Assembly: GCA_963675245.1 (NCBI GenBank)
Contig: OY775910.1
Span: 896,001 to 960,000 of the forward strand
Length of the DNA stretch: 64,000 nucleotides
Origin: Acholeplasmataceae bacterium
GTDB taxonomy: Bacteria; Bacillota_I; Bacilli_A; Acholeplasmatales; Acholeplasmataceae
Direction of reading: 5' to 3'
Made by a program: the position numbers and the translations under genes. The first letter of the stretch is position 1. Each line of letters starts with the position of its first letter. Positions 1 to 25,393 of this stretch are shown here, piece by piece. The notes below the pieces were generated by a model. It searched no databases. It saw nothing but the letters and a program-made list of their open reading frames with translations, and was not told where the DNA came from.

Positions 1-731
1 TTAAGTGATTCATAAACGACACCACAACCAAGTGAACCATCACCGACATTAGCGATGACAACGCCATTTTTATGATTAACTCTTTTAAATAGGGCAGCAC
101 CTGTAGCAATTGGCGCAGAACCACCAACGATTGCGTTATTTGGGTAAATACCAAAAGGTTGGAAGAAGACATGCATACTACCACCCATACCTTTATGGAA
201 TCCTGTTCTTTTTGCAAAGATTTCAGCTAATGTACCATACAATAAAAAATCAATAGCAAGATCTTTTGAACTCGCATCAGGACTTTCATGTTTAACAACG
301 TGATATGTTTCCCCATCTTCATAGTTGACCATGATGTCATTCAATGCAGATTCATCTAGTTTATGGATAGAGACTAAACCCCTCGCAAGTACTTCACTAT
401 GACTTCGATGTGAACCAAATGTTAAATCGTCTTTTTCAAGTAGATAGGCTTGACCAACAGAAGCAGCTTCTTGCCCCATTGATAAATGAGCTGGTCCAGG
501 ATAAGTAAATTTAAATCCATTGTACTCACCTTTAACTTTAATCGAATAGAGCATACTTTCAAATTCTCTTAATGTTGCCATATCGTGAAACATTCTTAGG
601 AAATCAGCTTTACTAAATTGTTCTTTTTCATCATTAACAGTCTTATCATAGACGTTTACTGGAATATCTTCGAATGTGATTTTACCTTTTTTTAGCACCT
701 CTTCAGGATGTATAAATAATGATTTTGGCAT
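1..731 (-). CDS. TPP-dependent 2-oxoacid/acetoin dehydrogenase-type E1 component (alpha region, possibly an alpha-beta fusion); 3' end runs off the window
   Basis: Hand translation from ATG at 731 (RBS GGAGG upstream): [12 protein letters not shown]...[15 protein letters not shown]...FGSHRSH...KGMGGSMH...[17 protein letters not shown]...[16 protein letters not shown]. Contains E1-alpha motifs and the GDG TPP motif; follows the E2 and E3 genes. Confidence 0.9.
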
Positions 732-742
732 TGTAATTCCTC

Positions 743-2113
743 CTATATATGAAATAAAGCATCTTTAACAAGCTCACCAACTGTTGGATGAGGATAGATG
801 ATTCGTTTCATTTCTTCAATATTAATTTCAAGGTGCATCATCGCACTCAAGAAAAGTGAAATTTCACTTGCATAAAGCGAAAGCATATGCGCACCAAGTA
901 GGGTGTTTCTTTTTTGATCAACCACGAGTTTAACAAAACCGTCGTGGTCATTTGATTCAGCTAAATGTCTTCCGGAATAAGAGACAGGTAAAGAAATGAC
1001 TTTAACATCATATCCTTTTTCTTTAGCGACCAACTCCGTATAACCAATACTACATACTTCAGGAGAAGTATATATCACAGATGGTATCTTATCGTAATTG
1101 ATAACGTCTTTTTTACCTAGAAGGGTGTTGATACAAACTTCAGCTTCTTTATATGCTGTATGAGCTAACATGACTTTACCGTTAACATCACCAATCGCAT
1201 ACACGTTCGCAACATTTGTCTTTGTTTGATCATCTGTGATGATTGAACCATTTTTACGTGTGTCAATATATAGGTTTTCTAATCCAAGTTCACTTGTACT
1301 TGCACGTCTACCAACAGATAATAATGCGTAATCAAAGGTGACTGATTCTTCTTGATTGTCTTGGACATACGTCAGTTCTTTTTCAGATACCTTGGTTACT
1401 TTCGCATTTAATTTAAATGTGATGCCTTGTGATTCTAATACTTTTTTAAGTGCTTTTGAAATATCTAGATCAAGTGGTCCGCCAATGGTTGGTAACATTT
1501 CAACTACAGTTACTTTACTCCCTATTTGGGCAAAGTAAGTTGCCATTTCAAGACCAATAACTCCTCCACCAATCACAGTCAGATTTTTAGGAATATCGGT
1601 TAAATCTAATATTTCTCTACTTGTTAAAATCGAACCTTTTTTAATGGCTTCAGCCAATCCTTCGATGGGTGGAATCACCGGTGAAGAACCACTAGCAATA
1701 ATCAGTTTAGTTGAGACATAAATATCACTACCCACTTGGACTTTAAAGCCTTCATTATCTTTTTTAAGAATAGTAGCTAAACCTGAGACAACTGTAACCT
1801 TAGCTGTTTTCAATGTATATCCAACACCAGCAACAAGTGTTTTAACAATGTTGTTTTTACGTTGAACAACTTCCTTTTGATTATAAGTTACATCATTTGC
1901 ATAAACACCATAACTTTCGCCATGCTTTGCATAACGGAAGTGCTTTGCGCTATTTAATAATGCTTTACTTGGAATGCAACCTTCATTCAAACACACGCCA
2001 CCAAGTTTATGCTTCTCGATAACTAATGTTTTTAAACCAGCTTTACCAGCAAGGTCTGCAGCATGATAACCACCAGGACCACCACCGATAATGATTAAAT
2101 CGTAATTATTCAT
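743..2113 (-). CDS. lpdA: Dihydrolipoyl dehydrogenase (E3)
   Basis: GGGPGGY FAD motif, [13 protein letters not shown] redox disulfide, [11 protein letters not shown] motif, HPTVGE C-terminal motif. Confidence 0.96.
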
Positions 2114-2123
2114 GATAAACTCC

Positions 2124-3350
2124 TTATTTTAAACCTTTAGGGTCACTATCGATATGTTTAGAAAATGCTTGTAGATATTCTTTTAAGTCTTTTAAAAATC
2201 TAGAAGCACCAGCACCGTCAAGTACTTGATGATCATATGTGAGTGATAATCCCATTGCTTGATAGAATACAAAGCGACCGTGTTCATCGGTTTTAACTTT
2301 TGTTGAAATAGTATTGACACCTAAAATACCAGTTTGAGGTGGGTTAATAATTGGAGTGAAGTGTTCAATATCCAACGTCCCAAGATTTGAAATTGTAAAT
2401 GATGCATTCGTTAATAAATCGGGATTAATATTGCCAGCGATACATTGAGAAAAGAGTGATTTTGCTTGATTGGAAATATCAACAAGACTCAATGTGTCAG
2501 CATATTGCAACGTCGGTACCATAAGACCTCTTGGTGTATCGGTAGCAATCCCCATATGAACATGTTCGAAAACACGTAATTCACCATTAACGAAGTGTGC
2601 ATTTAAATCCATATGTTTCTTTAAGACTCTAGATACAGCATAAATCATAATATCGTTAAATGTGATTCTAGGTAATGATTGTTGTTCTGATATCCTTTTA
2701 AGTTCTTTTCGATAACTAAATATATCAGTCGCGTCAAATGATAAAGAGTGTGTGAGCTGTGCCGTATTTTGCAAGCTCTTCATCATCGTCTTACCAATAA
2801 TCTTACGCATATTAGAAAGTGATTTAACGGTATAGTCTTGTGTGCCACTTACTTGAACAACTGCAGTACCAACATTTTCAAGAGATACATCACGGTCAAT
2901 CACACGTCCACCTGGACCACTACCTTTGATCGTTTGAATATCTATGTTTTGTTTTTGTGCTTTAACTTTTGCACGAGGACTTGCGAAATGTTCACTTGAG
3001 GAATCTGATTCAACGATGTCTTCAACTTGAATAGACGCAGATGCTTTAGGTTGATCAACTTGAGAAGCCTCCTCGTTAGAAGAAGTAGGTGAGTCAACAT
3101 CGATTTTTTCACCTGGTTCACCAATATAACAAACAGGGGTTAAGACATCGACAATTTCACCTTCTTTGTATAGTAACTTTAAAACAGTGCCTTCAACTTC
3201 TGATGGAAAATCAAAAACTGCTTTATCTGTTTCGTAGCTAAAAAGAATCGTACCGACTTCAATGTTATCATTTTCTTTCACGTGCCAAGCGCTTAAAAAA
3301 CAGCTCTCAACGGTATTACCTTGTTTTGGCATTAATACTGGATTTGCCAT
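2124..3350 (-). CDS. Dihydrolipoamide acyltransferase (E2)
   Basis: One lipoyl domain (ETDKA), an E3-binding segment (ASPRAK...GSGPGGRV) and catalytic TISNLG / LTYDHQVLDGA. Confidence 0.94.
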   Translation of the reverse strand: MANPVLMPKQGNTVESCFLSAWHVKENDNIEVGTILFSYETDKAVFDFPSEVEGTVLKLLYKEGEIVDVLTPVCYIGEPGEKIDVDSPTSSNEEASQVDQPKASASIQVEDIVESDSSSEHFASPRAKVKAQKQNIDIQTIKGSGPGGRVIDRDVSLENVGTAVVQVSGTQDYTVKSLSNMRKIIGKTMMKSLQNTAQLTHSLSFDATDIFSYRKELKRISEQQSLPRITFNDIMIYAVSRVLKKHMDLNAHFVNGELRVFEHVHMGIATDTPRGLMVPTLQYADTLSLVDISNQAKSLFSQCIAGNINPDLLTNASFTISNLGTLDIEHFTPIINPPQTGILGVNTISTKVKTDEHGRFVFYQAMGLSLTYDHQVLDGAGASRFLKDLKEYLQAFSKHIDSDPKGLK

Positions 3351-3352
3351 AA

Positions 3353-4621
3353 TTACACCTCAATCTTTTTTCCGTGTTTAAGTAAATAAGATTCTGCTTC
3401 AACACTCCATAAACCATCATGACGATCACAAATGTTTGCAAGCTCAGCAAAAAGCGGATCGTTTTCGCCAAGTTTTCTAAAATCACTAATATCTGTCATA
3501 GGCATAGAAATATGTGTATAAACTAATTTTTTAGCACCAGGGATTTGTGGCAAATTGAGTGTCGTATCAATCACTGAATCAAGACCACCTACATGAGAAA
3601 TCATAATTTCTGGATGTAGTCTTCCTTTCGCAAACATATCTAGCACTTCTTTCATATCATTCGTGTTACCACCAGAAGTTCCGGTTAAGCGATGTCCTTC
3701 GTAATGTAATTTATAAAAATTAAAGTTTGCTGAAAAGTTAGGATCACTTGGGCCGGCAAAGAAATTTAGACAACCCATTTTAGCCAACAATTGGTTAGCT
3801 TGCTCGACTAAAAATTTTACTGGTGCGAATACAAAAACATCATCATACCCTTCTCCTTGATTAAACGCTTTTAATTGTTCAACTGGATTGTCAAAAGAAC
3901 TTGTATTTATATAGCGTAATTCAATACCTTTTTCTTTAGCGTCACTTGGTCTAACTAATGCTGCTGCTCGATCTAATCTTTCTTGATTAACATCTGTAAC
4001 GACAAGCAGACGAGGTGTAATGTCACGATTTACTGCATAAGCGATTGCCGCTAACCCCATTGGACCACCACCAGCAATAATAATCATGGCACCATCTTTT
4101 TTGATATCCATTTCATGCATATGTGTATCAAAGTTGGATCTAAAGTTTTCATGGAATGCACCTGCAACACATGAAAATGGTTCAGCTAAAGATCCCGAAA
4201 AATAACCTTCACCCTCATATGGCAATAAACATTCCTGAATCATGACCACTTCAGGAATGACAATATAAGTCGCATCTCCACCAATATATTCAAAAGAATA
4301 GCCTGGGGCATCTAAACTGCCTTTATAGTTTAAAGCTGGTTGAATAGAATATTTGTCACCAGGTTTGTATTGTTCTTTCCATTTGTCACCTACTTCGATA
4401 AGTTCTAGACAAAACTCATGACCGATAATCGTAGGATGAGTAGAGATATTATTTGGTACGCGTTTATGATCTTCTCCTTGATTAGCAGCTTTATAAGAAG
4501 ACATGCAGATGCTATCTGAAATAACTTTAGCAAGTATTTCAGTTGTCTTTATGTCTGGTAAATCAAATGTTTCTAATCGTAAATCTTTTTTTCCATAAAT
4601 TCTTACAGCAGTAGTTTTCAT
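3353..4621 (-). CDS. MDR-family Zn-binding dehydrogenase, L-sorbose-1-phosphate reductase (SorE)-like
   Basis: MKTTAVRIYGKKDLRLE...SDSICMSSYK...IIGHEF...GGPMGL...LNFFAGP...GTSGGN, typical of the SorE subfamily. Start moved to ATG 4621 (RBS GAGGT). Confidence 0.85.
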   Translation of the reverse strand: MKTTAVRIYGKKDLRLETFDLPDIKTTEILAKVISDSICMSSYKAANQGEDHKRVPNNISTHPTIIGHEFCLELIEVGDKWKEQYKPGDKYSIQPALNYKGSLDAPGYSFEYIGGDATYIVIPEVVMIQECLLPYEGEGYFSGSLAEPFSCVAGAFHENFRSNFDTHMHEMDIKKDGAMIIIAGGGPMGLAAIAYAVNRDITPRLLVVTDVNQERLDRAAALVRPSDAKEKGIELRYINTSSFDNPVEQLKAFNQGEGYDDVFVFAPVKFLVEQANQLLAKMGCLNFFAGPSDPNFSANFNFYKLHYEGHRLTGTSGGNTNDMKEVLDMFAKGRLHPEIMISHVGGLDSVIDTTLNLPQIPGAKKLVYTHISMPMTDISDFRKLGENDPLFAELANICDRHDGLWSVEAESYLLKHGKKIEV

Positions 4622-4703
4622 ATTAGTTACCTCGCAGTATTCTAGTTTATCACAATAGTATTTTACTATAACAATCAAAAAAATGTTTATAATGTTCAAT
4701 TCG

Positions 4704-4760
4704 TTGTAAAATCATCTTTTTAATGATAAAATAAAATCATAAATAAACATAAACGATCAT
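4704..4760 (+). promoter_or_regulatory. Promoter of the deoR-family gene plus three 10-bp-periodic repeats (candidate operator)
   Basis: TTGTAA-17bp-TAAAAT with an extended TG, followed by ATAAAATCAT/AAATAAACAT/AAACGATCAT at 4731-4760. Confidence 0.5.
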
Positions 4761-4774
4761 ATGGAGGAGTTATT

Positions 4775-5536
4775 GTGTCATATTTGGAAAGACAAGATGA
4801 TATATTGAATATTTTATCCAATGAAAAAGTAGTAAGTGTCCAGAAATTATCTGCAACATTATATGTCAGTGAAGCTACCATAAGAAGAGATTTGATCCGA
4901 ATGGATAATTTAGGATTAATTAGACGCACACATGGTGGCGCGATGATTGCTAAAAATACGGCACAAGAATCATCGTTCGCGATGCGTGAAGTAGAAAACC
5001 TATCTGCAAAAAAATTATTATGTTCACTGGCGTTAGCACACATCACTGATCACAGTGTGATTTATATGGATAGTAGTTCAACAGTGATGCCAATCATTCC
5101 TATGCTTCAAAGATTTCAACATTTAACAGTAATTACACACGGCATCAGAACAGCACTTCTTTTATCGAACCTCGAAAATGTAGAGGTTTATGTGGCCGGT
5201 GGAAGATTAGGAAATTTTTCAAACTCAATTTTGGGACAATCCGTTATTGAGTTTTATGATCAGATTAATGCTGACATTGCATTATTGTCATGTAGTGGCA
5301 TTGATGAAAAGGGAGATATTACAGATAACAGCATGGAACAAGCAAAAATTAAAAAGCAGATTGTAGATAAAAGTAAAAAGGTCATTATGTTGGCCGATCA
5401 AACGAAATTTGGTAAAACATTTATGAATACAACTTTCCAACTACAAGATGTTGATATATTTATCACAGATAAAGATATGCCTGAAACATTTATAGAAGTC
5501 TTTAATCAGTATGAAGGAGAAGTGATTAAACCATAA
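4775..5536 (+). CDS. DeoR/GlpR-family transcriptional regulator (probable rhamnose-locus repressor)
   Basis: VSEATIRRDL HTH, RTHGGA, and a sugar-phosphate sensor domain (DSSST, ADQTKFG). Confidence 0.92.
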   Translation: MSYLERQDDILNILSNEKVVSVQKLSATLYVSEATIRRDLIRMDNLGLIRRTHGGAMIAKNTAQESSFAMREVENLSAKKLLCSLALAHITDHSVIYMDSSSTVMPIIPMLQRFQHLTVITHGIRTALLLSNLENVEVYVAGGRLGNFSNSILGQSVIEFYDQINADIALLSCSGIDEKGDITDNSMEQAKIKKQIVDKSKKVIMLADQTKFGKTFMNTTFQLQDVDIFITDKDMPETFIEVFNQYEGEVIKP

Positions 5537-5563
5537 AAAAAGGAACTTTTCGTTCCTTTTTTT
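5535..5563. terminator. Bidirectional intrinsic terminator between convergent deoR and SDR genes
   Basis: AAAAAAAGGAAC-TTTTC-GTTCCTTTTTTT. Confidence 0.8.
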
Positions 5564-6341
5564 AATGCATTATTTGTCCACCTGTGACATTGATTGCTTG
5601 ACCAGTCATGTAGCTTGAGAGATCTGAAGCCAAGAAGACGACCATGTTTTCAATGTCTTCATATTCACAACTGCGTTTGAGTGGGACTTGATTGATATAT
5701 TTTTCTCTAATCTTTTCTTCAGTGGTATGTTGGTTTTGAGCATATTGTTTAAACAAGCTATTCACCCAGAGTGGTGAATTCAAAAGATTACCAGGACAGA
5801 TACTGTTAACTCTAACGTTAAACTCAGCAAACTCTTTAGCTAGACTTTGAGTTAAACCGATACCACCAAACTTACTTGCTGCATATGCACCATTTTTATA
5901 AGAACCCACCTTGCCAGATTTACTATTAATTTGGATGATAGAGCCTTTGCGGTTTTCAATCATCATCGGTGCGAATGCTTTAACAGTATTGAAATAGCCA
6001 TTTAGGTTGACATCAATAACCTTTTTAAAATGAGCAGAAGAAAGCGTGTTAATATCTCCACTTAATAAAATGCCAGCATTTGATACGAGAATATCAACTC
6101 GACCAAATTTAGATTTAACATCATTCGCAACACTCTCACATTGTTCATAGTTTGTGATATCAAGCGCATATGGATATGCATTCTCTATATCAGAACAAAC
6201 TTTTTTTACACCTTCATAGTTGATATCACAAGCGATGACAGTACAACCTTCATTTGATAATCTAAGTGCAATTGCTTCACCTAAACCTTGTGATACGCCA
6301 GTGACAACAGCGACTTTGTCTTTCAAATTTATTTCACTCAT
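5562..6341 (-). CDS. srlD: SDR, sorbitol-6-phosphate 2-dehydrogenase-like
   Basis: TGVSQGLG, IQINSKSGKVGS, YAASKFGGIGLTQSLA, VPLKRSCEY and TGQAINVTGGQ closely follow SrlD signatures. The true substrate may differ. Confidence 0.8.
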   Translation of the reverse strand: MSEINLKDKVAVVTGVSQGLGEAIALRLSNEGCTVIACDINYEGVKKVCSDIENAYPYALDITNYEQCESVANDVKSKFGRVDILVSNAGILLSGDINTLSSAHFKKVIDVNLNGYFNTVKAFAPMMIENRKGSIIQINSKSGKVGSYKNGAYAASKFGGIGLTQSLAKEFAEFNVRVNSICPGNLLNSPLWVNSLFKQYAQNQHTTEEKIREKYINQVPLKRSCEYEDIENMVVFLASDLSSYMTGQAINVTGGQIMH

Positions 6342-7591
6342 TTTAAAGCCTCTTTTCTTGCATATGAACTAAAGAACTTAATACGTTCACTAATGGACAT
6401 ATGCTGATATGTATTTCCTAACAATCCATCTTCAGGATTTTTTTTATATAATTTTTCATGTGCAACTAACGCCCAAGCGGAATCAATTAAATGATGATGT
6501 TTTGGATATTGATAAGCAGAACAATTAAAACTTTGTCTAGGTGAATTGATATCTTCTCCGGATATTTCAATCATATGATATTTATGTGCTAAGGCATGAA
6601 TACGATCGATTTGTTCTTCTGTATTTCTGGTTGGCATATATGCAATGGCAGGTACGCCAATCTCTTTTAATGCGATAATTAATTCTTCTAAAAATGCATC
6701 TTCAAATGTTTGTGCTCTTTTATCACCAGTAACTGATTCAACAACATCACCTAAATACGGATAAGCCGGGATTGCACCATGTGCTTTAGCAAACGCAACA
6801 TATTCCTTCGCATCTGGTAACTCATCTGTCGCAGGAATGAAGAATTTTGAAGTGTTTGATTTAATGACACCTAAAATATCATATAGCAATAAGTCGTTAT
6901 TTTTAGATAGAAGTAATGCTCTTTGTTTCTTTGATACCTTGATTTCAAATGTTTGCGATACGTAGTCAATTAATTGATTCATGTCAGTGAAATGATGAAG
7001 TAATTTTTGTGCTAAAGCAAATAGTATGTGCCTTTCTGTTACAGTGCCACCCTCTTCAACCTTAGAAATAGATTGTACATCGCGTTTATAATCTAGCACA
7101 ATATCAGAAGATGCGATTAACCGATTGACTTTATCTACAATTAAACGATTTCTTTTTTCACGATTATCACGATAAGGTTTTAAAAATACATCAAATGAAG
7201 CAATGCTTTCTTCTGGGATGGCATGCGCCACCATATACATCACATTATTCTGATCAGGGTTATTGATCCTACGATTAAAGGTATCAAATTTAACACGTAA
7301 TTCTACACCAGCAGTTGAAGCGATACCTAGTAAATCAGAAGCGTCATGAAATTCTTTAATGCCTGCAACAGTATCATGATCAATAATACCTGCAACACTT
7401 AAACCGGCTTGATATGCACTATAAGCTGCATGTGTTGGTGAATACGGTGAAAAGGAATAAAACGTATGGATGTGATTATTCACATCATGTTCATTAATTT
7501 CTCTAACAGCATTGTGGTAACTGAGTATTTCTTCGAGTGCACTGATGCGATCAGATAATATGCCTTCGTTTAGTTTATTGATAATTTTCAT
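6338..7591 (-). CDS. PHP-domain metalloprotein of unknown function
   Basis: NNHIHTFYS, IIDHDT, GVE and SGEDINS (PHP metal-ligand pattern); overlaps both neighbours by 4 nt. Confidence 0.8.
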   Translation of the reverse strand: MKIINKLNEGILSDRISALEEILSYHNAVREINEHDVNNHIHTFYSFSPYSPTHAAYSAYQAGLSVAGIIDHDTVAGIKEFHDASDLLGIASTAGVELRVKFDTFNRRINNPDQNNVMYMVAHAIPEESIASFDVFLKPYRDNREKRNRLIVDKVNRLIASSDIVLDYKRDVQSISKVEEGGTVTERHILFALAQKLLHHFTDMNQLIDYVSQTFEIKVSKKQRALLLSKNNDLLLYDILGVIKSNTSKFFIPATDELPDAKEYVAFAKAHGAIPAYPYLGDVVESVTGDKRAQTFEDAFLEELIIALKEIGVPAIAYMPTRNTEEQIDRIHALAHKYHMIEISGEDINSPRQSFNCSAYQYPKHHHLIDSAWALVAHEKLYKKNPEDGLLGNTYQHMSISERIKFFSSYARKEALK

Positions 7592-8685
7592 TTACTTTGC
7601 ACCTTAAACCTGTAATGTTCAACTTCCCAATTCAATATGAAATTAATGTCATCATCTGTCATTGGTTTAGATCCACCGAAATACTGACTATAGTATCCAA
7701 TTTTTATTTGATCAAGAAATAGAAGTCTCGCATTTTCGGATTGTTTTTGACTATCACCTACCGCATACATACCAGATCCTTTGAGCAGTATAATGCGTGG
7801 TGGGAAGCCAAATTTGTCAATATATGTCTGATATGTTAATTGTAAATTATCAAACGATGTATAAAGTGGTTCGTGTCGGCAATACACCACATGATCTGGC
7901 GTAAATGATGTTCTGACTTTTTGATAAGAAGAAGGGTTTTCTAGAATATCATCTATGGCATGATTCTTCTCAAATGTCACATATTTATGCACATCAAGTG
8001 ATTTGATGGCAGACAGATGAATATCAAAGATAGCTTTATCTAAAGATGTTTTTGACAAGTCAATATCAGATTTAATTTGTTGATTAATCTTAGCCATTAA
8101 AGCATCAACTAATTGGTCAATTTCTTCTATACTATCAGCTGCGAAGAACACACCATGATTCTCTAAGAGAAGTATTTGAGGTATCACATGATGCTTTTTT
8201 TCATGTGCTTCCATTTTTTCTTTACAGGTTATCGCTAGTATATATCCTGGTTTAGTCGCTTCTACCCATACGACGTTATGTGATAAATGATTTTCAACCC
8301 AAGATTCACCAGATAGACCACATGTTACGGCATTTACTTTTGTTGGATGTAGATGTAATACAAATTTAAAGGGAAATAAGTCATGTAGCTGTGTTTCAAC
8401 AGAAGGTCTATTTATTTCACCCTCACATCTCGCATCCATGAGATCTTTTAAAACTTCCTTTTCACGATTCGATGTTTGATCGCTATAGGTCACATGCCAC
8501 ATATGATTAAGCTTCTTACGATCAAGTTTAACAAAGCCATCTTCTTTAATCGTTGCTAGTTGATAACCACTTGCTTTTACAATCAATGTGTTATCATCTT
8601 TAGCACTTGTATTTCCACCACCAGCTAAAACAAATTCTGATTGAGCACCATATTTGTTGGACATTTTTATTAATTCGGTTAACAT
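7588..8685 (-). CDS. Class II aldolase/adducin-fold protein (RhaE-like aldolase or epimerase)
   Basis: GGGNTSAK, KASG, RPSVET, LHLHP and LENHG Zn ligands, plus TPDH; resembles the N-terminal half of bifunctional RhaEW. Confidence 0.85.
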   Translation of the reverse strand: MLTELIKMSNKYGAQSEFVLAGGGNTSAKDDNTLIVKASGYQLATIKEDGFVKLDRKKLNHMWHVTYSDQTSNREKEVLKDLMDARCEGEINRPSVETQLHDLFPFKFVLHLHPTKVNAVTCGLSGESWVENHLSHNVVWVEATKPGYILAITCKEKMEAHEKKHHVIPQILLLENHGVFFAADSIEEIDQLVDALMAKINQQIKSDIDLSKTSLDKAIFDIHLSAIKSLDVHKYVTFEKNHAIDDILENPSSYQKVRTSFTPDHVVYCRHEPLYTSFDNLQLTYQTYIDKFGFPPRIILLKGSGMYAVGDSQKQSENARLLFLDQIKIGYYSQYFGGSKPMTDDDINFILNWEVEHYRFKVQSK

Positions 8686-8953
8686 ATTAGTTTGCTCCTT
8701 TAATGATCATCGACTCCGTGTATGACACTGTCATTATATGTGAATCAAACATTATTTACAATCTAAAATTTTCAAATTATAATCAAAAAGATTAATCACG
8801 TTTTACCCTCAAATATTTATATATTTGAGTCAAAGAAACAAAATCTTTCGGATTTGTAAAATACAAAAAAAATATGATTTTGAGTAAAAAAAGTGATATA
8901 AAAAATCAATAATTACATGATATACTTGAAAAGAGACAACAGGAGTGATAGTT

Positions 8954-10270
8954 ATGAAAAGTGTAAGAATCGCTATTGATATTGGTGCGAGTGGTGGTAG
9001 GCATTTAGCGTATTATATCGAAAATGGTAAAGATATTTATGAAGAAGTTTACCGCTTTAAAAACTACATGTCAGGAACACCAGAATATAGTTTAATTTGG
9101 GATTATCAACGCTTAGTTGATAATGTCTTCAAAGGATTAAAAATTGCTTTTGAGACATATGATGAAGTCCTATCGGTTGGTCTTGATACATGGGGTGTAG
9201 ATTATGCATTGCTCGATGAAAAAAAAGAGGTTATTAAGCCTGTTTTTGCATATCGGAATCCCAGAACTGAAGCAATCATAAAAGAAGTGCATGAGATTAT
9301 TTCGTTTGAAAAATTATATGAAATTACAGGTTCACAATTCCAGTCTTTTAACACAATTTACCAATTATATTGTGATAAAAAAAGCGGTAAATTAGATAAA
9401 GCTAAACACTTTTTAATGATGCCGGAATTCTTATATTACAAATTAACTGGTCTGATGTTGCAAGAGTATACAGAAACGAGCACTTCAGGTATGATTGATT
9501 TAAAAACGAATGATTTTTCAACTGAAATAATTGAAAAATTAAGTTATCCAAAACACTTATTTGATAAACCTGTTCAACCAGGGATTTTCCATCCTTTAGC
9601 TGAAGATGTTTCCAAAGCTTTAGGTGGTCAAACTAAAGTTTGTTTAGTGGCTACACATGATACTGCAAGTGCAGTTGAAGGGGTGGATATTGATCTTAAT
9701 CAAGCATACTTATCAAGTGGTACTTGGTCATTATTAGGTATGAAAGTAAAAGAACCGATTTTGACAGAAATAGCCAGAGAAAATAATTTCTCTCATGAAG
9801 GTGGCATTGGTTATATCAGATTCCAAAAAAACATCATGGGATTATGGATGACACAGTTTTTAAAAAATGAATTAGGTTATGATGATTATTTTCAAATGGC
9901 GGATGATGCAAGTTGCTCCACATGTTGTGAATTGATTGACGTTAATGATGAGTCATTTCTAGCTCCAGTATCCATGAAAGATGCGATTTTTGATTATTTA
10001 AAAAAGCATCATAAAAAGCTACCGGAAACAAATGGCGATATTTTAAATGTGGTTTACCACAGTTTAGCAAAATCATATGAAGATGCATTAGATGAACTAG
10101 AAGAAATAACAGGCAAAAAAATAGAAACCTTAACCATATTTGGTGGGGGTGCACAAAACAAATATTTTAATAAAGTGATTAAGAAATATTCAACCAGAGA
10201 TTTAGTGATACATCCAATAGAAGCAACCGCTATTGGAAATTTAAGAGTACAGGAGAAATATGATGAGTAG
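8954..10270 (+). CDS. rhaB: Rhamnulokinase
   Basis: AIDIGASGGR, DTWGVDY, FNTIYQL, ATHDTASA, SSGTWSLLG, KNIMGLW, EATAIGN. Start set at ATG 8954 (RBS AGGAG). Confidence 0.92.
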   Translation: MKSVRIAIDIGASGGRHLAYYIENGKDIYEEVYRFKNYMSGTPEYSLIWDYQRLVDNVFKGLKIAFETYDEVLSVGLDTWGVDYALLDEKKEVIKPVFAYRNPRTEAIIKEVHEIISFEKLYEITGSQFQSFNTIYQLYCDKKSGKLDKAKHFLMMPEFLYYKLTGLMLQEYTETSTSGMIDLKTNDFSTEIIEKLSYPKHLFDKPVQPGIFHPLAEDVSKALGGQTKVCLVATHDTASAVEGVDIDLNQAYLSSGTWSLLGMKVKEPILTEIARENNFSHEGGIGYIRFQKNIMGLWMTQFLKNELGYDDYFQMADDASCSTCCELIDVNDESFLAPVSMKDAIFDYLKKHHKKLPETNGDILNVVYHSLAKSYEDALDELEEITGKKIETLTIFGGGAQNKYFNKVIKKYSTRDLVIHPIEATAIGNLRVQEKYDE

Positions 10271-11504
10271 ATTTGAAGATGCGAAGAAAATATATGAATC
10301 GTTTGGTGTCAATGTAGAACAGGCATTAGATACATTAAAAAAAATACCTATATCCATTCATTGTTGGCAAGGTGACGATGTTCGCGGGTTTGAATCTGAT
10401 GAACAAGCGTTAACGGGTGGCATTCAAGCAACAGGGAATTATCCAGGTCGTGCGCATGGATTCAAGGAATTAAGTAGAGATTTAGAAAAAGCATTCCAAC
10501 ATATTCCTGGTTCGAAACGCGTCAACTTGCATGCGATTTATGCTGTATCTGATAAACCCATTGGAAGAAATGATATTAAAAACGAACATTTTGATCCATG
10601 GTTAGAATTTGCGAAGAAAAACAATGTTAAATTAGATTTCAATCCAACCTTTTTCTCATCACCTATGGTAAAAGATAATCTAACATTATCTTCACCTGAT
10701 GAAGAAGTGAGATCTTTTTGGATTGAACATGGTGTCATTTCAAGAGACATCGCAGCATATATTGGTGAAAAACAAGAATCACCATGCTTATTTAATGTAT
10801 GGATTCCAGATGGTATGAAAGACACACCTGCTGATCGCGTTGGACCGCGATTAAGATTAAAAGATTCACTAGATAAAATCTTTAAGAAACCACTAAAAGA
10901 CGATGTTGTTATTGATGCTGTTGAGTCTAAAGTGTTCGGTATTGGATTAGAGTCGTATACGGTTGGTTCTCAAGAATTTTATATGAACTATGCACAACAA
11001 AAAGGCGTTTGTTGTCTCATTGATAATGGGCATTATCACCCAACTGAAAATGTTGCAGATAAATTATCATCCATGTTAATTTTTAATAAATATGTCGCAT
11101 TACATGTCACAAGACCTGTCCGCTGGGATAGTGATCACGTGGTCTTATTTGATGATATTACAAAAGATATCGCACGCGAAATCATTCAGTCAAAACAACC
11201 TGAACGTTTCTTAATTGGCCTCGATTATTTCGATGCGTCTATTAACAGAATTGCAGCTTGGATACTAGGTACAAGAAACTTCCAAAAAGCACTCTTACAA
11301 GCATTATTACTGCCACATGAATATATGACAAAACTTCAAAACAATGGTGAGTTCACTGAACTACTAGTTCTGAATGAAGAACTAAAAACATTACCATTTC
11401 ATGATGTTTGGGAAGCGTATTGTAAAAGTGAAAATGTATCACCAGACATGACTTGGTTTGATGATGTAAAAACATATGAGAAAGAGATTTTATCAAAACG
11501 TTAA
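10260..11504 (+). CDS. rhaA: L-rhamnose isomerase
   Basis: SIHCWQGDDV, GGIQATGNYPGRA, DFNPT, WIPDG, DAVESKVFGIG, HPTE, RPVRWDSDHV, GLDYFDASINR. Confidence 0.96.
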   Translation: MMSRFEDAKKIYESFGVNVEQALDTLKKIPISIHCWQGDDVRGFESDEQALTGGIQATGNYPGRAHGFKELSRDLEKAFQHIPGSKRVNLHAIYAVSDKPIGRNDIKNEHFDPWLEFAKKNNVKLDFNPTFFSSPMVKDNLTLSSPDEEVRSFWIEHGVISRDIAAYIGEKQESPCLFNVWIPDGMKDTPADRVGPRLRLKDSLDKIFKKPLKDDVVIDAVESKVFGIGLESYTVGSQEFYMNYAQQKGVCCLIDNGHYHPTENVADKLSSMLIFNKYVALHVTRPVRWDSDHVVLFDDITKDIAREIIQSKQPERFLIGLDYFDASINRIAAWILGTRNFQKALLQALLLPHEYMTKLQNNGEFTELLVLNEELKTLPFHDVWEAYCKSENVSPDMTWFDDVKTYEKEILSKR

Positions 11505-11533
11505 GTTTCAAAGATTTAATCAGAAATACATGC

Positions 11534-11562
11534 AAAAGCGAAGCTAGAATGCTTGGCTTTTT
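11534..11562 (+). terminator. Putative intrinsic terminator after rhaBA
   Basis: AAAAGCGAAGC-TAGAAT-GCTTGGCTTTTT (one mismatch). Confidence 0.55.
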
Positions 11563-11639
11563 AAACACTGAAAGCACAATAAATTAAATGTGATAAAATA
11601 GTGGTGACTGAACAATTCAGTTTTATTTGGGAGAAAAAT

Positions 11640-12350
11640 ATGATTAGAATTGCTATTGTTGAGGATGATAAAAATTACATAAGTGAATTAAAGAAAATGC
11701 TAGCACAATATGAAAAAGAAAGTGGCCGAAAATTAATCGTCACTGTTTTTGATGATGGTGAAGATATTGCGATTGATTATAAAGCAGAATATGACATTAT
11801 TTTAATGGATATTGAAATGCGTTTCATGGATGGCATGACAGCGGCGACTAAAATCCGTGAAAAAGATAACGAAGTTATTTTAATCTTTATTACGAATATG
11901 CCGCAATATGTCATGGAAGGTTACAAAGTTGATGCGCTAGATTATGTGTTAAAACCTTTAACATATTTTTCGCTGTCGCAACGCATTGATCGTGCCTTAA
12001 TAAGAATGAAAAAAAGATTGACTAAATACATTACAATTCCGATTCATAATGGTATTCAAAAAATTGATGTCAATAAGATATATTTTATAGAAATGCATAA
12101 TCACGATGCTATTTTTCATACTGAAAATGGTGAATATGTACTAAGAGAATCATTAAGAATTTTAGAAAAGTTACTTGAGAAGGAATCATTTTATCGTTGC
12201 CATAAAAGTTTTATGGTTAATTTAGCTTATGTTGACTCGATTCAAGGTTGTGATATTTATATTAAAGACCAAATAATTCAAGTTAGTAGAAGTAAGAAAA
12301 AAGATTTTATCGATGCTTTAAATAACTATTTAAATGAGGTTAGTAAATGA
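11640..12350 (+). CDS. LytTR-family response regulator
   Basis: IAIVEDD, LMDIEM (phospho-Asp), DYVLKP, FYRCHKSFMVNL (LytTR). Start set at ATG 11640. Confidence 0.93.
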   Translation: MIRIAIVEDDKNYISELKKMLAQYEKESGRKLIVTVFDDGEDIAIDYKAEYDIILMDIEMRFMDGMTAATKIREKDNEVILIFITNMPQYVMEGYKVDALDYVLKPLTYFSLSQRIDRALIRMKKRLTKYITIPIHNGIQKIDVNKIYFIEMHNHDAIFHTENGEYVLRESLRILEKLLEKESFYRCHKSFMVNLAYVDSIQGCDIYIKDQIIQVSRSKKKDFIDALNNYLNEVSK

Positions 12351-13684: not shown

Positions 13685-13695
13685 ATACTAATTAC

Positions 13696-13723
13696 AAAGG
13701 CTATTTAATAGCCTTTTATTTTT
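13696..13723 (+). terminator. Intrinsic terminator after the two-component system
   Basis: AAAGGCTATT-T-AATAGCCTTT followed by a T-rich tail. Confidence 0.7.
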
Positions 13724-13739
13724 AAGTTTTAATCGTAAA

Positions 13740-13773
13740 AATACATTTCACGCATTAATTAATACATTTCACG
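13740..13773 (+). promoter_or_regulatory. LytTR-type tandem direct repeat upstream of the glycosidase operon
   Basis: AATACATTTCACG at 13740-13752 and 13761-13773 (21-bp period), upstream of extended -10 TGtTAAAAT (13801-13809) with no good -35. Confidence 0.7.
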
Positions 13774-13928: not shown

Positions 13929-16484
13929 GTGTTAAAAATTAGAGATCTGAAAATTGAAAATCAGACGCATGATATCGTTACTGATCAATTGAGACCAAGA
14001 ATTTCATATTATGTGGAAAGTGATCGAAAAGAAACAAATATCTTAAACGGACACATACAAATTGGCGATTGGTCCCTTGACACAACTGAACATGTAGCTG
14101 TCATGTATGACGGTCCCCAACTTACCCCTTATTCTTCATATACTGTTCATGTTGAAATCGAAGATGATCAAGGTAATATAGCTAAGGCGTCTAATACATT
14201 TAGCACAGGGAAGCTAGAAACACCTTGGGAAGCGAAATGGATTACTGATGGAGAGTACACATTTAAAGGTCAAAAGAAATCACCTAAAACAATGACCTTT
14301 AAAAAAGTTTTTACAAGTGATAAAAAAATCAAAAGTGCAAAAGTGTATGCTACTGCACTTGGTATATATGAATTAAATTTAAACGGAAAAAAAGTCGGGA
14401 ATGATTATTTTGCACCGGGTTTTACTGCGTATAAACATCACCTTCAATATCAAGTTTATGATATTACGAGTGACATAAAGTCGTCTAATGAGTTAACCGC
14501 CATAGTTGGTGGAGGATGGGCCGTTGGACCATTTACGTATGTCAGACGAACAAGGGTATTTGCAAAGAAACAAGCATTTCTTTGTGAGATAAGAATAACA
14601 TATACAGATGGTAGTACAGAAGTTATTAGTACAGATTCATCATGGGATGTTACACTAGATGGAAATTACGTTGAAACTGAATTTTATGATGGCGAAGTAT
14701 ATGATGCGACAATAGATATCTCAAAGATTAATTTTCACAAAGCTAGTTTAGCTAAAGTCTCAATAAAACCAGACATCACTGCAACGTATGGCGCAATGGT
14801 TAAACACATGGAAACATTGAAACCAATTGGTCATCATAAATCCAATCAAGGAACATTAATCTATGATTTTGGTCAAAATTTTGCAGGTGTAATTTCAATC
14901 AAAATTAATGCTAAAAAAGGACAAAGAATTGTTTTCAGACACGCAGAAATATTAATGAATGGTGAATTATATACAGAACCACTCAGAAGTGCAAAACAAG
15001 AAATTGTGTATATCGCAAAAGAGGGCGAACAAGTTTATTCACCCCGTATGACATTCATGGGATTCAGATTTGTGAGTGTTGAAGGTATCGCATCTGAAGA
15101 TTTAGAAATAACGGGATTAGTGTTATATTCAGATATTGAAACCACTGGTCAGTTTGAGTGTTCTAATTCCGATTTAAATCAACTTCAAAGAAATATTACT
15201 TGGAGTGCAAAGTCTAATTTCATTGATATTCCAATGGATTGTCCACAACGTGATGAACGCATGGGTTGGACAGGTGATATTGGGTTATTCGCATCAACAG
15301 CTGCATATAACTTTGATATGAGTCGGTTTTTGGAAAAATGGCTCATTGACGTCAAAGTCGAACAAAGACGCGGTGGTGGCATTCCAGTGATAGTACCGCT
15401 AGTCCGAGTACCACTACAATATGAGATTGCCTTACCAATGGCAGTTGATCATTGGGGTGACGCGTGTGTGTTAGTACCGTGGGCTGAATACTTAACACGT
15501 GGTGATATTAGTTTATTAGAAACCATGTATCCAGTCATGAAGAAATATATAAAAGCATGTCAGTTCTGGGCAGGGTTATTCTCATTTGGAAAACACCGTA
15601 AAATTTGGAAACTAGGTCATCATTATGGTGATTGGGTCGCACCCAACTCAGGTTTAATGGAGTGGATGAGTCGTGGTAAATGGACCGGAACAGCAAGTTT
15701 ATCAAACACTAGTAACATTGTGTCTAAAATTGCTCAGATATTAAATAAAACAGAAGATGTTGCATATTATAAGAAGCTTAGTGAAGATACAGCTGTTGCA
15801 TATCGAGACATATTGATGAATGATGATTGTTCAATCAAAAAAGAGTTTCAAACAGGATATGTCTTACCGCTTCATTATAAAATGCTTAACGATCAAGATC
15901 GATTTAAAGCAGCGGATCATTTGGCGGATATCATTCGCGAAAATGATTATAAAATCGCAACCGGATTTCCAGGTACGCCTTATGTCTTATTCGCTTTAGC
16001 AGATAATGGTCATTTAGAAGATGCGTATAAGATGCTTTTAAATGATGAAGCACCTTCTTGGTTATTTATGTTAAGAGCAGGTGCAACCACCATTTGGGAA
16101 AAATGGGATGCACTAAAAGAAAATGGTACAAGCAATACTGGTGAAGGTGATGGTTTGAAATGTATGGTATCGTTCAATCATTATGCGAACGGTGCTGTTG
16201 GAGATTTCTTCTATAAAAGAATCGCAGGTATTGAACCATTAGAGGGTGGATATAAATCCTTTAGTGTTAACCCAAGACTTGGTGGTAATCTGACATATGC
16301 TAAAGCTTCAGTAATGTCAGCATATGGCAAAATCGAAAGTCATTGGGAAATTAAAGATAATAACTTTACAATAAATGTTACTGTTCCTGTTGGATCAACG
16401 TGCTATTTGCAATTACCGAATGGAGAGAAACATGAATTGTTGAATGGTACTTACACATATGCACAAGATTTGAGAGAAAGGTAA
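13929..16484 (+). CDS. Alpha-L-rhamnosidase (GH78), no signal peptide
   Basis: TALGIYEL, YDFGQNFAG, DCPQRDERMGWTGD, GATTIWEKWD, SFNHYANG. Confidence 0.93.
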   Translation: MLKIRDLKIENQTHDIVTDQLRPRISYYVESDRKETNILNGHIQIGDWSLDTTEHVAVMYDGPQLTPYSSYTVHVEIEDDQGNIAKASNTFSTGKLETPWEAKWITDGEYTFKGQKKSPKTMTFKKVFTSDKKIKSAKVYATALGIYELNLNGKKVGNDYFAPGFTAYKHHLQYQVYDITSDIKSSNELTAIVGGGWAVGPFTYVRRTRVFAKKQAFLCEIRITYTDGSTEVISTDSSWDVTLDGNYVETEFYDGEVYDATIDISKINFHKASLAKVSIKPDITATYGAMVKHMETLKPIGHHKSNQGTLIYDFGQNFAGVISIKINAKKGQRIVFRHAEILMNGELYTEPLRSAKQEIVYIAKEGEQVYSPRMTFMGFRFVSVEGIASEDLEITGLVLYSDIETTGQFECSNSDLNQLQRNITWSAKSNFIDIPMDCPQRDERMGWTGDIGLFASTAAYNFDMSRFLEKWLIDVKVEQRRGGGIPVIVPLVRVPLQYEIALPMAVDHWGDACVLVPWAEYLTRGDISLLETMYPVMKKYIKACQFWAGLFSFGKHRKIWKLGHHYGDWVAPNSGLMEWMSRGKWTGTASLSNTSNIVSKIAQILNKTEDVAYYKKLSEDTAVAYRDILMNDDCSIKKEFQTGYVLPLHYKMLNDQDRFKAADHLADIIRENDYKIATGFPGTPYVLFALADNGHLEDAYKMLLNDEAPSWLFMLRAGATTIWEKWDALKENGTSNTGEGDGLKCMVSFNHYANGAVGDFFYKRIAGIEPLEGGYKSFSVNPRLGGNLTYAKASVMSAYGKIESHWEIKDNNFTINVTVPVGSTCYLQLPNGEKHELLNGTYTYAQDLRER

Positions 16485-16492: not shown

Positions 16493-18064
16493 ATGAAATT
16501 TCTGAACATGTTTAAAAACCCATTATTTAAAACAAAGATTAAAACAGCAAAAGTAAACAAAAAGGAAATGATCATAGGTTATTTCTTAGCACCATTCCTT
16601 GCATTAATGTCAAATGCCATCTTTGGATCTTACTTAAATCGTTATTTCTCTGATGTTATTGGGTGGACAGATGCAACCAGATTTGGTGTGTTCTCGGCGT
16701 TATTACCAATGTTATCTGTCATTTTAGTTATCGCTGGAAATGTATTTATTGGAAGATTGATTGATAAAACAAAAACACCAGCAGGTAAAGCAAGACCGTA
16801 TTTAATTCTTGCAGCTCCACTATTAGTTATTACAATGGCATTGTTGTTCTCTAATCCAATCAACAGTAGTCCTGTTATTCAAATGATTTGGATTGCCATT
16901 TCGTATAACTTATATTATGCATTAGCTTATCCAATTTATTATGCGTCTCATAGTGCGATGGTTGGTTTATCTACGAGAGATTCAAATAAACGTGGCTTAT
17001 TATCAACTATGTCAAATGCATCAGCAGTAGCTGCTGTAGGTATTGGCGCAAGCATGATTGTTCCATTCTTTATGATGAGTTTCTTGTTTGCTGAAACAAA
17101 TGGCGTATTAGATGTTCAACAAAGTTATGCTAACTGGCGTATCTTAATGATTATTCTTTGTGGTGTCACTTTCTTAGCAACATTGTTAGAATATTTCTTC
17201 ACAAGAGAAAGAATCACAGAAGAAGTTACTCATGAAGAACATTTAAGTGCACCAAAAATTTCAACTAAAGAACAGATTAAAGCATGTGTAACAAATAAAT
17301 ATTGGTGGATTATCATTCTTTATTTCCTACTGTTTCAATTAGGTGGACTAGTGAAGAATGGGTCTATGGTTTACTATAGCAGATGGATGTTTGATACAGT
17401 AACCGATGAAGCTAGTGCTGGACAAGTGATGGCTTTAATAGGCTTAATAGGAGGTATACCAACCGCAATTGGCATGTTACTCGCTTGGCCATTAGCAAAT
17501 AAACTTGGTAAGAAAAATGCAATCTTTCTAGGTTTGATTATTTCAGTTATCGGTGGCGCGGTAAGCTTCATAAATGTTCATAGCGTCTTAATGGTAAGTA
17601 TTGGTATTGTTTTAAAAGGTATAGGTTCCATTCCTGCGATGTATGTCACATTAGCATTATTGTCTGATGTACTTGATCACATGGAAGCTAAAAATAGGTT
17701 TAGAAGTGATGGATTCACAATGGCAATATACGGATCGATCATGGTAGGTTTATTAGGACTAGGCAACGGATTAATTAATGCACTATTAAGTGTCACTGGT
17801 TATGACCCGCTCGCTTCAACACAGTCGGGTGGTGTACAAACAGTATTGGTCATCTGTTTCTTAGGACTTGAATTGGCATTATATGCAGTCATTGTTGTAT
17901 TATTCCAATTCATGAATGTAGAAAAACATATTAAAGAAGATCAAGAGACGATTAAAGAGTATCAAAAACAGAAGGTTCTTGCAGCTGGAGGAGAGTGGAT
18001 TGATCCAGAAGAAAGATTAAGGATGGAGCAAGAAGCGGACGAAAGCGAGTTGAAAAAAACTTAA
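16493..18064 (+). CDS. MFS transporter, glycoside-pentoside-hexuronide (MelB-like) family
   Basis: About 12 TM segments; GRLIDKTKTPAGKARPY; FTRERI. Confidence 0.88.
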   Translation: MKFLNMFKNPLFKTKIKTAKVNKKEMIIGYFLAPFLALMSNAIFGSYLNRYFSDVIGWTDATRFGVFSALLPMLSVILVIAGNVFIGRLIDKTKTPAGKARPYLILAAPLLVITMALLFSNPINSSPVIQMIWIAISYNLYYALAYPIYYASHSAMVGLSTRDSNKRGLLSTMSNASAVAAVGIGASMIVPFFMMSFLFAETNGVLDVQQSYANWRILMIILCGVTFLATLLEYFFTRERITEEVTHEEHLSAPKISTKEQIKACVTNKYWWIIILYFLLFQLGGLVKNGSMVYYSRWMFDTVTDEASAGQVMALIGLIGGIPTAIGMLLAWPLANKLGKKNAIFLGLIISVIGGAVSFINVHSVLMVSIGIVLKGIGSIPAMYVTLALLSDVLDHMEAKNRFRSDGFTMAIYGSIMVGLLGLGNGLINALLSVTGYDPLASTQSGGVQTVLVICFLGLELALYAVIVVLFQFMNVEKHIKEDQETIKEYQKQKVLAAGGEWIDPEERLRMEQEADESELKKT

Positions 18065-18167
18065 TTCCATCTTATTAAGAAAGGTTTAATGATTTTTTAG
18101 AAAAGTCTCTTGAGAGTAGTAAATAAAAATGAGTAAAATAAAAAAATATATAGAAGGAGTAAACAAA

Positions 18168-25392: not shown

Positions 25393-25393
25393 T

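Follow-up and report, generated by a model that had tools for sequence, protein, structure and literature searches.

We analyzed a 64,000-nucleotide stretch of the genome of an Acholeplasmataceae bacterium (assembly GCA_963675245.1, contig OY775910.1, positions 896,001 to 960,000 of the forward strand; hereafter the window, in which coordinates are given unless stated otherwise). Its left end holds a gene cluster in which the L-rhamnose genes rhaA and rhaB adjoin genes for a class II aldolase-fold protein, a PHP-fold protein, oxidoreductases related to SorE and SrlD, and a lipoamide complex (E1/E2/E3) that depends on thiamine pyrophosphate (TPP). The best reading of the cluster, held at about even confidence, is a route for L-rhamnose that consists of a reductase, a dehydrogenase and lipoamide-dependent cleavage, with acetyl-CoA drawn from the methyl end of the sugar. 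The genes and features, taken from the open reading frame (ORF) map combined with NCBIfam and Pfam scans, are as follows.

1..731, minus strand: E1 alpha-beta, N-terminal 243 aa; the remainder lies left of the window, at genome positions 894263-896000
743..2113, minus strand: E3, dihydrolipoyl dehydrogenase (TIGR01350, 485.8 bits, cut-off 408.8)
2124..3350, minus strand: E2, dihydrolipoyl acyltransferase with one lipoyl domain (Biotin_lipoyl, E3_binding, 2-oxoacid_dh)
3353..4699, minus strand: medium-chain dehydrogenase/reductase (MDR) of the SorE family, predicted ketose-1-phosphate reductase (47% identity to SorE)
4775..5536, plus strand: DeoR-family regulator (HTH_DeoR and DeoRC domains), divergent from the SorE-like unit
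5537..5561, no strand: predicted two-way hairpin terminator with flanking A and T runs (sequence reading)
5562..6341, minus strand: SrlD-like short-chain dehydrogenase/reductase (SDR), predicted polyol-phosphate 2-dehydrogenase (PRK12384, 321.7 bits, cut-off 307)
6338..7591, minus strand: PHP-fold protein of a large unnamed family (AlphaFold2 model and Foldseek)
7588..8685, minus strand: RhaE-like class II aldolase-fold Zn enzyme (PF00596, 61.8 bits)
8686..8944, no strand: intergenic region with divergent promoters, flanked by the aldolase-fold unit and rhaBA (ORF map and sequence reading)
8945..10270, plus strand: rhaB, rhamnulokinase-like FGGY kinase (TIGR02627, 391.8 bits, cut-off 527.95)
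10260..11504, plus strand: rhaA, L-rhamnose isomerase (NF002203, 642 bits, cut-off 572)
13929..16484, plus strand: GH78 alpha-L-rhamnosidase (NCBIfam/Pfam)
16493..18064, plus strand: MFS_2 glycoside transporter (NCBIfam/Pfam)

Leftward of rhaB, two transcription units can be distinguished, one with the aldolase-fold, PHP and SDR genes and the other with the SorE-like gene, E2, E3, E1 and a gene for a 402-aa MtlD-like protein, which directly follows E1 and lies outside the window on the left; the units are split by the terminator and the opposite-strand DeoR gene. The end of the PHP gene and the beginning of the SDR gene share 4 bases. An initial annotation of this DNA had grouped these genes around one DeoR gene. 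Every gene was found where it had been placed and the DeoR gene is present, but E1 runs off the window as a fused alpha-beta gene, DeoR is on the opposite strand, and the terminator divides the set. When a shared DeoR operator was sought in both divergent promoter regions, the two had no more than 9-mers in common, within AT-rich DNA, and these are not evidence. No family of the phosphotransferase system (PTS) was detected among the 13 + 36 window ORFs scanned, a search confined to the window, which bears out the earlier remark that the window has no sorbose/sorbitol PTS.

The kinase overlaps rhaA and matches the rhamnulokinase model best by far, yet below its cut-off, the next match being fuculokinase at 133.9 bits; rhaA also exceeds the cut-off of a second model (TIGR01748, 608.9 bits vs 584.95). 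A LytTR two-component pair, the GH78 rhamnosidase and the MFS_2 transporter lie downstream of rhaA, and the neighbourhood is thus a rhamnoside-utilisation locus.

Enzymes of the cluster

In L-sorbose catabolism, SorE followed by SorD or SrlD transposes the carbonyl of L-sorbose-1-phosphate along the chain. The MDR of the cluster is 47% identical to Klebsiella SorE in a pairwise alignment (198 of 418 residues, E = 3e-141). By tblastn, 16 records of a plasmid collection were matched; E. coli yggP and genes annotated as sorE in Serratia, Citrobacter and Klebsiella ranked highest, with 47-49% identity across 93-94% of the query, and the matched Klebsiella sorE sits in a classical sorC, sorD, PTS, sorE operon. 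Translation of the MDR probably begins some 25 codons into the ORF. The SDR scores above the PRK12384 cut-off, has the catalytic motif YAASK, and has 5o3z as its best match in the PDB (204.8 bits); with Klebsiella SorD it shares only 31% identity. Both assignments of the initial annotation, SorE-like and SrlD-like, are thus upheld, the former by full-length identity to a SorE from a sor operon and the latter by the PRK12384 score and the 5o3z match. The resemblance to the Klebsiella sor operon lies in an MDR related to SorE, an SDR of the glucitol-6-phosphate dehydrogenase type and a carbonyl that would be shifted to the opposite end of a hexose phosphate. Unlike that operon, the cluster has no sorbose PTS in the window, uses rhaA and rhaB as entry enzymes, has an SDR that is SrlD-like rather than SorD-like, and continues with a lipoamide complex; its predicted product is a 1-deoxy-ketose, not fructose-6-phosphate. 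E. coli yggP, annotated as a 'zinc-binding dehydrogenase' and 47% identical to the MDR, may be a ketose-1-phosphate reductase too.

The MtlD-like protein contains both Mannitol_dh domains and reaches a best score of 286 bits against a cut-off of 356. The initial annotation had given a role to every gene, a claim that does not hold, given that this gene closes the operon.

The E1 of the complex is a single fused alpha-beta ORF of 822 aa (E1_dh, Transket_pyr and Transketolase_C), extended at the N terminus by about 165 aa. The expected motifs are intact, namely the TPP motif GDG...NN in E1, the lipoyl-lysine motif ETDKA and the catalytic DHQVLDG in E2, and the redox disulfide CLNEGC in E3. E1 falls below the equivalog cut-offs for pyruvate dehydrogenase (PDH; 219.8 vs 393.85, 146.4 vs 411.35 and 229.6 vs 321 bits), and the acetoin E2 model NF011457 matches the lipoyl domain of E2 only (58.6 bits vs a cut-off of 307). 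Canonical pdhA, pdhB, pdhC and pdhD genes lie about 50 kb away (pdhA, 474.1 bits vs a cut-off of 411.35), so that the complex of the cluster is a second, dedicated one; this operon rules out the possibility that the cluster encodes the PDH of the cell and counts in favour of the initial annotation. The canonical PDH operon carries an IS110-family transposase gene between pdhC (E2) and pdhD (E3) (locus L088, 7634-8794, minus strand; genome positions about 845.6-846.8 kb).

The acetoin dehydrogenase complex cleaves acetoin, a methyl acyloin, to acetyl-CoA and an aldehyde. Like the AcoA/AcoB/AcoC/AcoL system, the cluster combines a TPP-dependent E1, a lipoyl E2 and an E3 and occurs beside a normal PDH; it differs in its fused E1 alpha and beta with the N-terminal extension, in its sugar-phosphate enzyme partners, in its DeoR-type regulator and in its substrate, presumed to be a sugar phosphate.

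The PHP-fold protein had no Pfam match at 1e-5, and neither a PDB sequence search nor the ESM Atlas gave any name more specific than 'PHP domain protein'. The fold was recognized from an AlphaFold2 model (predicted local distance difference test score, pLDDT, of 92) with Foldseek matches to 3e0f, 2yb1 and 9etk, the model being closest to TrpH-type phosphoesterases. The family is large, with at least 6995 of 8000 candidates scoring at E <= 0.001. Metal ligand positions were derived from profile alignments to 3e0f and 2yb1 together with the invariant columns of the family. The protein shares with the TrpH-type phosphoesterases (Cv1693, RNase AM, BAD_1165) the fold (Foldseek TM score 0.73, target-normalised) and the HxH, DH, E, H and D motifs. 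In contrast to them, it has an extra helical insert of about 130 aa, and substitutions affect two of the three canonical ligands of the third metal: the Asp that follows HxH is Phe47, and the D-x-H motif reads D347-I-N349, both invariant in 17 sequences. In RNase AM, the residues at these positions, Asp20 and His257, are reported to bind the third manganese, and the D20A substitution inactivates the enzyme (PMC9410882). With these ligands replaced, the family fails the canonical trinuclear signature, and the protein, as judged from its sequence, may not be an ordinary phosphatase.

The aldolase-fold protein is, according to its model (pLDDT 93), a member of the class II aldolase/epimerase superfamily, a fold that includes the epimerase AraD. 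The phosphate loop GGGNTS, the catalytic Glu in RPSVE97 and the Zn-binding His triad in H111-x-H113 and N-H177-G are invariant in 16 sequences. Foldseek retrieved FucA, AraD, the decarboxylase OtnC/YgbL, the dehydratase MtnB and pyruvic oxime dioxygenase alike, so that aldolase and epimerase are inseparable by this comparison. The best NCBIfam matches are the N-terminal halves of bifunctional aldolase/SDR models; on the RhaEW model TIGR02632, the protein scores 92.2 bits vs a cut-off of 567.75, aligning with the N-terminal half only, without the fused partner. Cluster-type aldolase-SDR fusions from three of the related loci described below (L039, L047 and L052) score 270-305 bits on the same model, about half of the cut-off.

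RhaEW has measured aldolase and lactaldehyde dehydrogenase activities in Chloroflexus and Bacillus, and is reported to yield neither dihydroxyacetone phosphate (DHAP) nor lactate without NAD+ (PMC3870299). Since no DHAP appears unless NAD+ is supplied, the reaction of RhaEW itself may be other than a plain aldol cleavage, and the 'aldolase' half may not be a free-standing aldolase. None of the terms 'PHP', 'acetoin', 'pyruvate dehydrogenase' or 'dehydrogenase complex' is used in the text of the same paper (PMC3870299). The cluster protein belongs to the same two-domain family as RhaEW (B. subtilis YuxG, Chloroflexus Caur_2283), and the versions of the cluster in other genomes include full-length fusions that replace RhaD in rha loci. 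Here, unlike in RhaEW, the aldolase-fold part stands alone and is accompanied by the PHP protein, the SorE-like enzyme and the lipoamide complex. The two metalloenzymes had been put forward as epimerases; nothing computed assigns such a role to them, and the nearest relatives of the aldolase-fold protein are RhaEW-type fusions.

Distribution of the gene set and of rhaD

The conservation of the cluster was assessed in loci collected with an alignment of PHP homologues as the query. Among the matches listed, 580 of 601 encoded a relative. The best 80 loci were searched by tblastn with the operon proteins, and eight were annotated with NCBIfam. In the 29 loci that extend for at least 8 kb on either side of the PHP gene, the most frequent partner is the SDR (24 loci), followed by the aldolase-fold gene (16), the SorE-like MDR (15), E2 and E3 (11 each), the fused E1 (8), a rhaB-like kinase (7) and rhaA (3). 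Any match to E1, E2 or E3 was present in 19 of the best 80 loci, and these contain the SorE-like gene in 18 cases, the SDR in 17, the aldolase-fold gene in 15, a rhaB-like kinase in 9 and rhaA or fucI in 5. A DeoR gene stands beside the cluster in 19 of the best 80 related loci; none of the 80 loci around PHP yielded the MtlD-like gene, which turned up only in genome G060, discussed below.

Among the eight annotated loci, the gene set occurs in Clostridia, Oscillospiraceae, Acholeplasmataceae, Halanaerobiales and Actinomycetota. In the actinomycetote locus (L032), it lies beside an L-fucose isomerase gene scoring 1080 bits, and in L067 the order is SorE-like, SDR, E2, E3, E1, PHP, rhaA, aldolase-fold, rhaB; in both, the genes of the two units are interleaved on one strand. 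Interleaving within single operons extends over Bacillota, Actinomycetota and Halanaerobiales. Lipoylation genes are found inside the cluster in two loci (lplA in L047, lipB and lipA in L072). Because the arrangement recurs across phyla, it is not a product of chance, and the co-conservation with rha or fuc genes that the initial annotation had called for is present, the set recurring with rhaB, rhaA or fucI in Bacillota, Actinomycetota and Spirochaetota. We give roughly even weight to the view that the cluster forms one L-rhamnose regulon and that an equivalent cluster serves L-fucose in other genomes.

Many clostridial versions of the cluster carry an additional protein of the class II aldolase type, 430-440 aa long. 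One of these (L016, 12116-13405) matches the Aldolase_II profile in two stretches; for another (L010, 13736-15061), the best NCBIfam matches are 3-oxo-tetronate-4-phosphate decarboxylase and FucA, both below the cut-off.

The genome assembly is a single contig of 1.63 Mb, 99.96% complete. The aldolase-fold gene is its sole Aldolase_II gene, no second one being found. The genome contains no rhaD, and no RhaD model (TIGR02624 or NF002963) matches the aldolase-fold protein. Neither bacterial microcompartment shell genes nor a fucO-type reductase gene were found in the genome; one generic aldehyde dehydrogenase gene is present, away from the cluster and beside rnfD. The initial annotation had seen no lactaldehyde reductase or dehydrogenase in the window; in the whole genome, rhaD, a fucO-type reductase and pdu shell genes are lacking. 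The only candidate for a fucO-type reductase, the sole iron-containing alcohol dehydrogenase of the genome, was rejected because it is a phosphonate-type fusion that belongs to a phosphonate gene pair. This pair consists of phosphonopyruvate decarboxylase (432 bits) followed by a 578-aa protein with a PsrA-like alcohol dehydrogenase half (L086, 208-3061; genome positions about 1154.2-1157.1 kb) and resembles a phosphonate-synthesis gene pair, in a genome of 1.6 Mb.

The distribution of rhaD was examined in 201 genomes, all from the same order. With a threshold of E <= 1e-100, the fused E1 was found in 3 of these (G000, G060 and G081, the last of which holds locus L064), and rhaA was present in 15. 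In 11 of the 15 rhaA genomes, judging by the places of Aldolase_II matches, an aldolase of RhaD size (an open frame of 264-293 aa) directly adjoins rhaA. Two of the 11, G025 and G195, were verified as rhaB-rhaA-rhaD, with RhaD scores of 335 and 329 bits on NF002963 (cut-off, 170). In G000 and G081, only the RhaE-like gene and the fused E1 are present, with no rhaD, and in G196 the aldolase is on a different contig from rhaA. Not one of the 15 rhaA genomes has both rhaD and the fused E1. This exclusion is as expected if the cluster replaces RhaD; given that the relatives are not independent, it is a pattern and not a statistic. The claim that the cluster stands in place of the aldolase route is in agreement with these data, in that relatives with rhaA carry rhaD instead of the cluster. 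Compared with the canonical rhaBAD pathway, rhaA and rhaB are shared and a GH78 rhamnosidase and a transporter lie nearby, whereas rhaD is missing from this genome and present, as rhaB-rhaA-rhaD, in G195, which is of the same genus. In G151 (contig C1, 131438-133776), rhaA contains three in-frame stops and adjoins a double aldolase of 416 aa; this rha locus is probably in decay.

G060 contains a stand-alone six-gene unit, DeoR followed by the SorE-like gene, E2, E3, the fused E1 and the MtlD-like gene, 66-87% identical to the corresponding genes analyzed here. The unit (7948-16464 in locus L090, G060:C3:3001-22900) is surrounded by unrelated genes, such as those for a catalase and an MFS transporter. 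Because it stands alone, the reductase, the polyol-phosphate dehydrogenase and the complex appear to be a self-contained module, which supports the core of the route proposed below.

Proposed route and competing explanations

From the gene identities, homologies, co-conservation and exclusion of rhaD observed above, we infer all the chemical steps of the route. RhaA and RhaB would produce L-rhamnulose-1-phosphate, which, RhaD being absent, would not undergo the RhaD split. The SorE-like MDR would reduce the C2 carbonyl, yielding a 6-deoxyhexitol-1-phosphate, which is the same as a 1-deoxyhexitol-6-phosphate, and the SrlD-like SDR, a step that the MtlD-like enzyme may share here, would re-oxidise the carbon beside the methyl group. 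The resulting 1-deoxy-ketohexose-6-phosphate would be a methyl acyloin that the fused E1, with E2 and E3, could cleave in the manner of acetoin to acetyl-CoA, NADH and a tetrose-4-phosphate. An inversion or isomerisation that leads to D-erythrose-4-phosphate would most likely come from the RhaE-like Zn enzyme, from the PHP-fold protein or from both. Transketolase, together with a sedoheptulose-bisphosphate bypass, could then pass D-erythrose-4-phosphate on to the pentose-phosphate network. These metalloenzyme roles are a guess, though a reasonable one, because the class II aldolase fold includes AraD and the metal site of the PHP protein is altered.

The stereochemistry was worked out by hand from Fischer projections. 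L-Rhamnulose-1-phosphate and L-fuculose-1-phosphate differ only at C4, and this carbon would become the aldehyde carbon, so that one module could serve both sugars, beside either rhaA or fucI. In the absence of any epimerisation, reduction of the SorE type would take both sugars to D-threose-4-phosphate. A single inversion, at the original C3 (C4 after the flip of the chain) or at C2 of the tetrose, would be enough to give D-erythrose-4-phosphate. C5 of the L-sugars becomes C2' in the 'right' configuration after the flip, which matches the glucitol-type substrate of SrlD. The two epimerisations that had been said to be exactly what the stereochemistry demands are needed only if the SorE-like and SrlD-like enzymes are strictly specific for the sorbo and gluco configurations; otherwise one inversion suffices. 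Of the route as originally drawn, the identities of the reductase, the dehydrogenase and the complex and their co-conservation stand, whereas the epimerase roles, the pair of epimerisations and the assignment of a role to every gene are not supported.

Several observations weigh against the proposed route. The PHP-SDR pair occurs alone in L004, L020 and L033, and the PHP gene lies by itself among housekeeping genes in L050, L055, L061 and L063. The G060 genome has no match to rhaA, Aldolase_II or PHP and a single FGGY kinase, and a unit without rhamnose genes implies that the module is not strictly tied to rhamnose. MtlD uses the manno configuration, which L-6-deoxy sugars do not supply according to the projections. 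The closest relatives of the aldolase-fold protein (36-45% identity) are SDR fusions in 11 of 12 cases, 640-671 aa in length, and, with RhaEW-like fusions as its nearest relatives, the cluster may still split the sugar. Finally, transaldolase was not found in the genome, and erythrose-4-phosphate would need transketolase together with fructose-bisphosphate aldolase and phosphofructokinase, a use that we infer and that is conceivable. Transketolase is present in the genome, and two class II ketose-bisphosphate aldolases and two genes of the phosphofructokinase family make a sedoheptulose-bisphosphate bypass conceivable.

The affinity of the aldolase-fold protein to RhaEW suggests another explanation, rather unlikely in our estimate, under which that protein and the SDR would be a split RhaEW that cleaves L-rhamnulose-1-phosphate to DHAP and L-lactaldehyde or L-lactate; the remaining genes would handle the three-carbon piece (for instance, lactate to pyruvate, and then to acetyl-CoA through a private complex) or would act as redox valves. 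The N-terminal halves of bifunctional models among the NCBIfam matches, the fusions among 11 of the 12 closest relatives, the invariant Zn triad and catalytic Glu, the presence of a sole Aldolase_II gene in a genome with rhaA and rhaB, and the RhaEW activity measured in Chloroflexus and Bacillus (PMC3870299) are all compatible with such a split. It would, however, leave the SorE homologue, the polyol-phosphate dehydrogenases and the PHP protein without a role; the SorE-like gene accompanies E1/E2/E3 in 18 of 19 loci, and a second complex of the pyruvate type would duplicate pdhABCD. Moreover, against the RhaEW cut-off of 567.75 bits, the fusions reach 270-305 bits and the stand-alone protein 92. 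Another scheme begins with oxidation of rhamnulose-1-phosphate at C5 by the SDR, followed by a Zn-dependent retro-aldol reaction to DHAP and methylglyoxal, after which the complex would convert hydrated methylglyoxal to acetyl-CoA and formate. What speaks for it is a chemical analogy only, to TPP cleavage of the acyloin type, and the failure of RhaEW to give DHAP unless NAD+ is present, which hints at oxidation before cleavage in this enzyme family (PMC3870299). Having no precedent and no role for the SorE-like, MtlD-like or PHP proteins, this scheme is very improbable.

The two transcription units could also be unrelated neighbours, the DeoR/SorE-like/E2/E3/E1/MtlD-like unit degrading some other phosphorylated ketose beside a rhamnose unit made up of rhaBA and the RhaE-like, PHP and SDR genes. 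The terminator and the opposite-strand DeoR gene between the units, the solitary occurrence of the first unit in G060 and the separate PHP-SDR pairs of L004, L020 and L033 fit this explanation, as does the spirochaete locus L052, which has a RhaEW-like gene, PHP and rhaA but no E1/E2/E3 within 10 kb. Against it stand the interleaving of the genes of both units on one strand in L067 and L032 and the company of the aldolase-fold gene in 15 and the SDR in 17 of the 19 E1/E2/E3 loci; furthermore, the window holds no kinase, PTS or isomerase for another sugar. We consider a mere neighbourhood of this kind quite unlikely. Only the reductase, dehydrogenase and lipoamide-cleavage route covers the SorE-type reductase, the polyol-phosphate dehydrogenase or dehydrogenases and the dedicated lipoamide complex together. 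The fully specified form of that route, in which the lipoamide/TPP complex uses a sugar phosphate, a SorE/SrlD-type pair flips the chain of 6-deoxyhexoses, cleavage gives acetyl-CoA and erythrose-4-phosphate, all six carbons are used with no lactaldehyde or propanediol formed, the PHP-fold protein, its third metal site lost, is the first non-hydrolytic sugar-phosphate epimerase or isomerase of its fold, and the RhaE-like protein is an epimerase in the style of AraD, is nevertheless unlikely to hold in every part.

Neighbouring genes and implications

Elsewhere in the window, an operon at 30491-36781 encodes an amino-acid dehydrogenase of the Glu/Leu/Phe/Val type, three subunits of a 2-oxoacid:ferredoxin oxidoreductase, a PTA_PTB phosphotransacylase and a kinase of the acetate/butyrate type, and resembles an amino-acid fermentation unit. 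Two very large GH3-like proteins, of 1463 and 1034 aa, are encoded at 18129-22520 and 25367-28471; in both, the usual domain order is reversed, with the C-terminal GH3 domain far in front of the N-terminal one, and surface proteins with Listeria-Bacteroides repeats are encoded between and upstream of the two. A 2336-aa ORF at 42811-49821 has no Pfam match at 1e-8, and the three small ORFs that follow are likewise unmatched.

In the literature searched, in which subscription journals are mostly uncovered, no paper was found in which a complex of the lipoamide, acetoin or TPP type is tied to rhamnulose or fuculose. Likewise, nothing was found on 1-deoxy-fructose-6-phosphate, on 6-deoxy-sorbose phosphates or on SorE in rhamnose catabolism, which is not proof that the route is unpublished. 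The route of this cluster is probably undescribed; it would combine elements that are all known, namely carbonyl transposition of the sorbose type, cleavage of the acetoin type and a rha operon.

Rhamnose and fucose are plentiful in plant pectins, mucins and bacterial surfaces, and their textbook anaerobic catabolism loses half of the sugar as 1,2-propanediol. If the proposed route is true, the formation of acetyl-CoA and a tetrose phosphate would, by our own estimate, roughly double the obtainable ATP, and the predicted fermentation products would change for many gut and rumen Clostridia, Christensenellaceae and Oscillospiraceae. The complex would be the first lipoamide complex to act on a sugar phosphate. 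The route would also provide a function for a PHP family of thousands of proteins and for the fused E1 alpha-beta proteins, as well as for the SorE/YggP homologues outside sorbose operons and for the RhaE-like half of RhaEW-type proteins.

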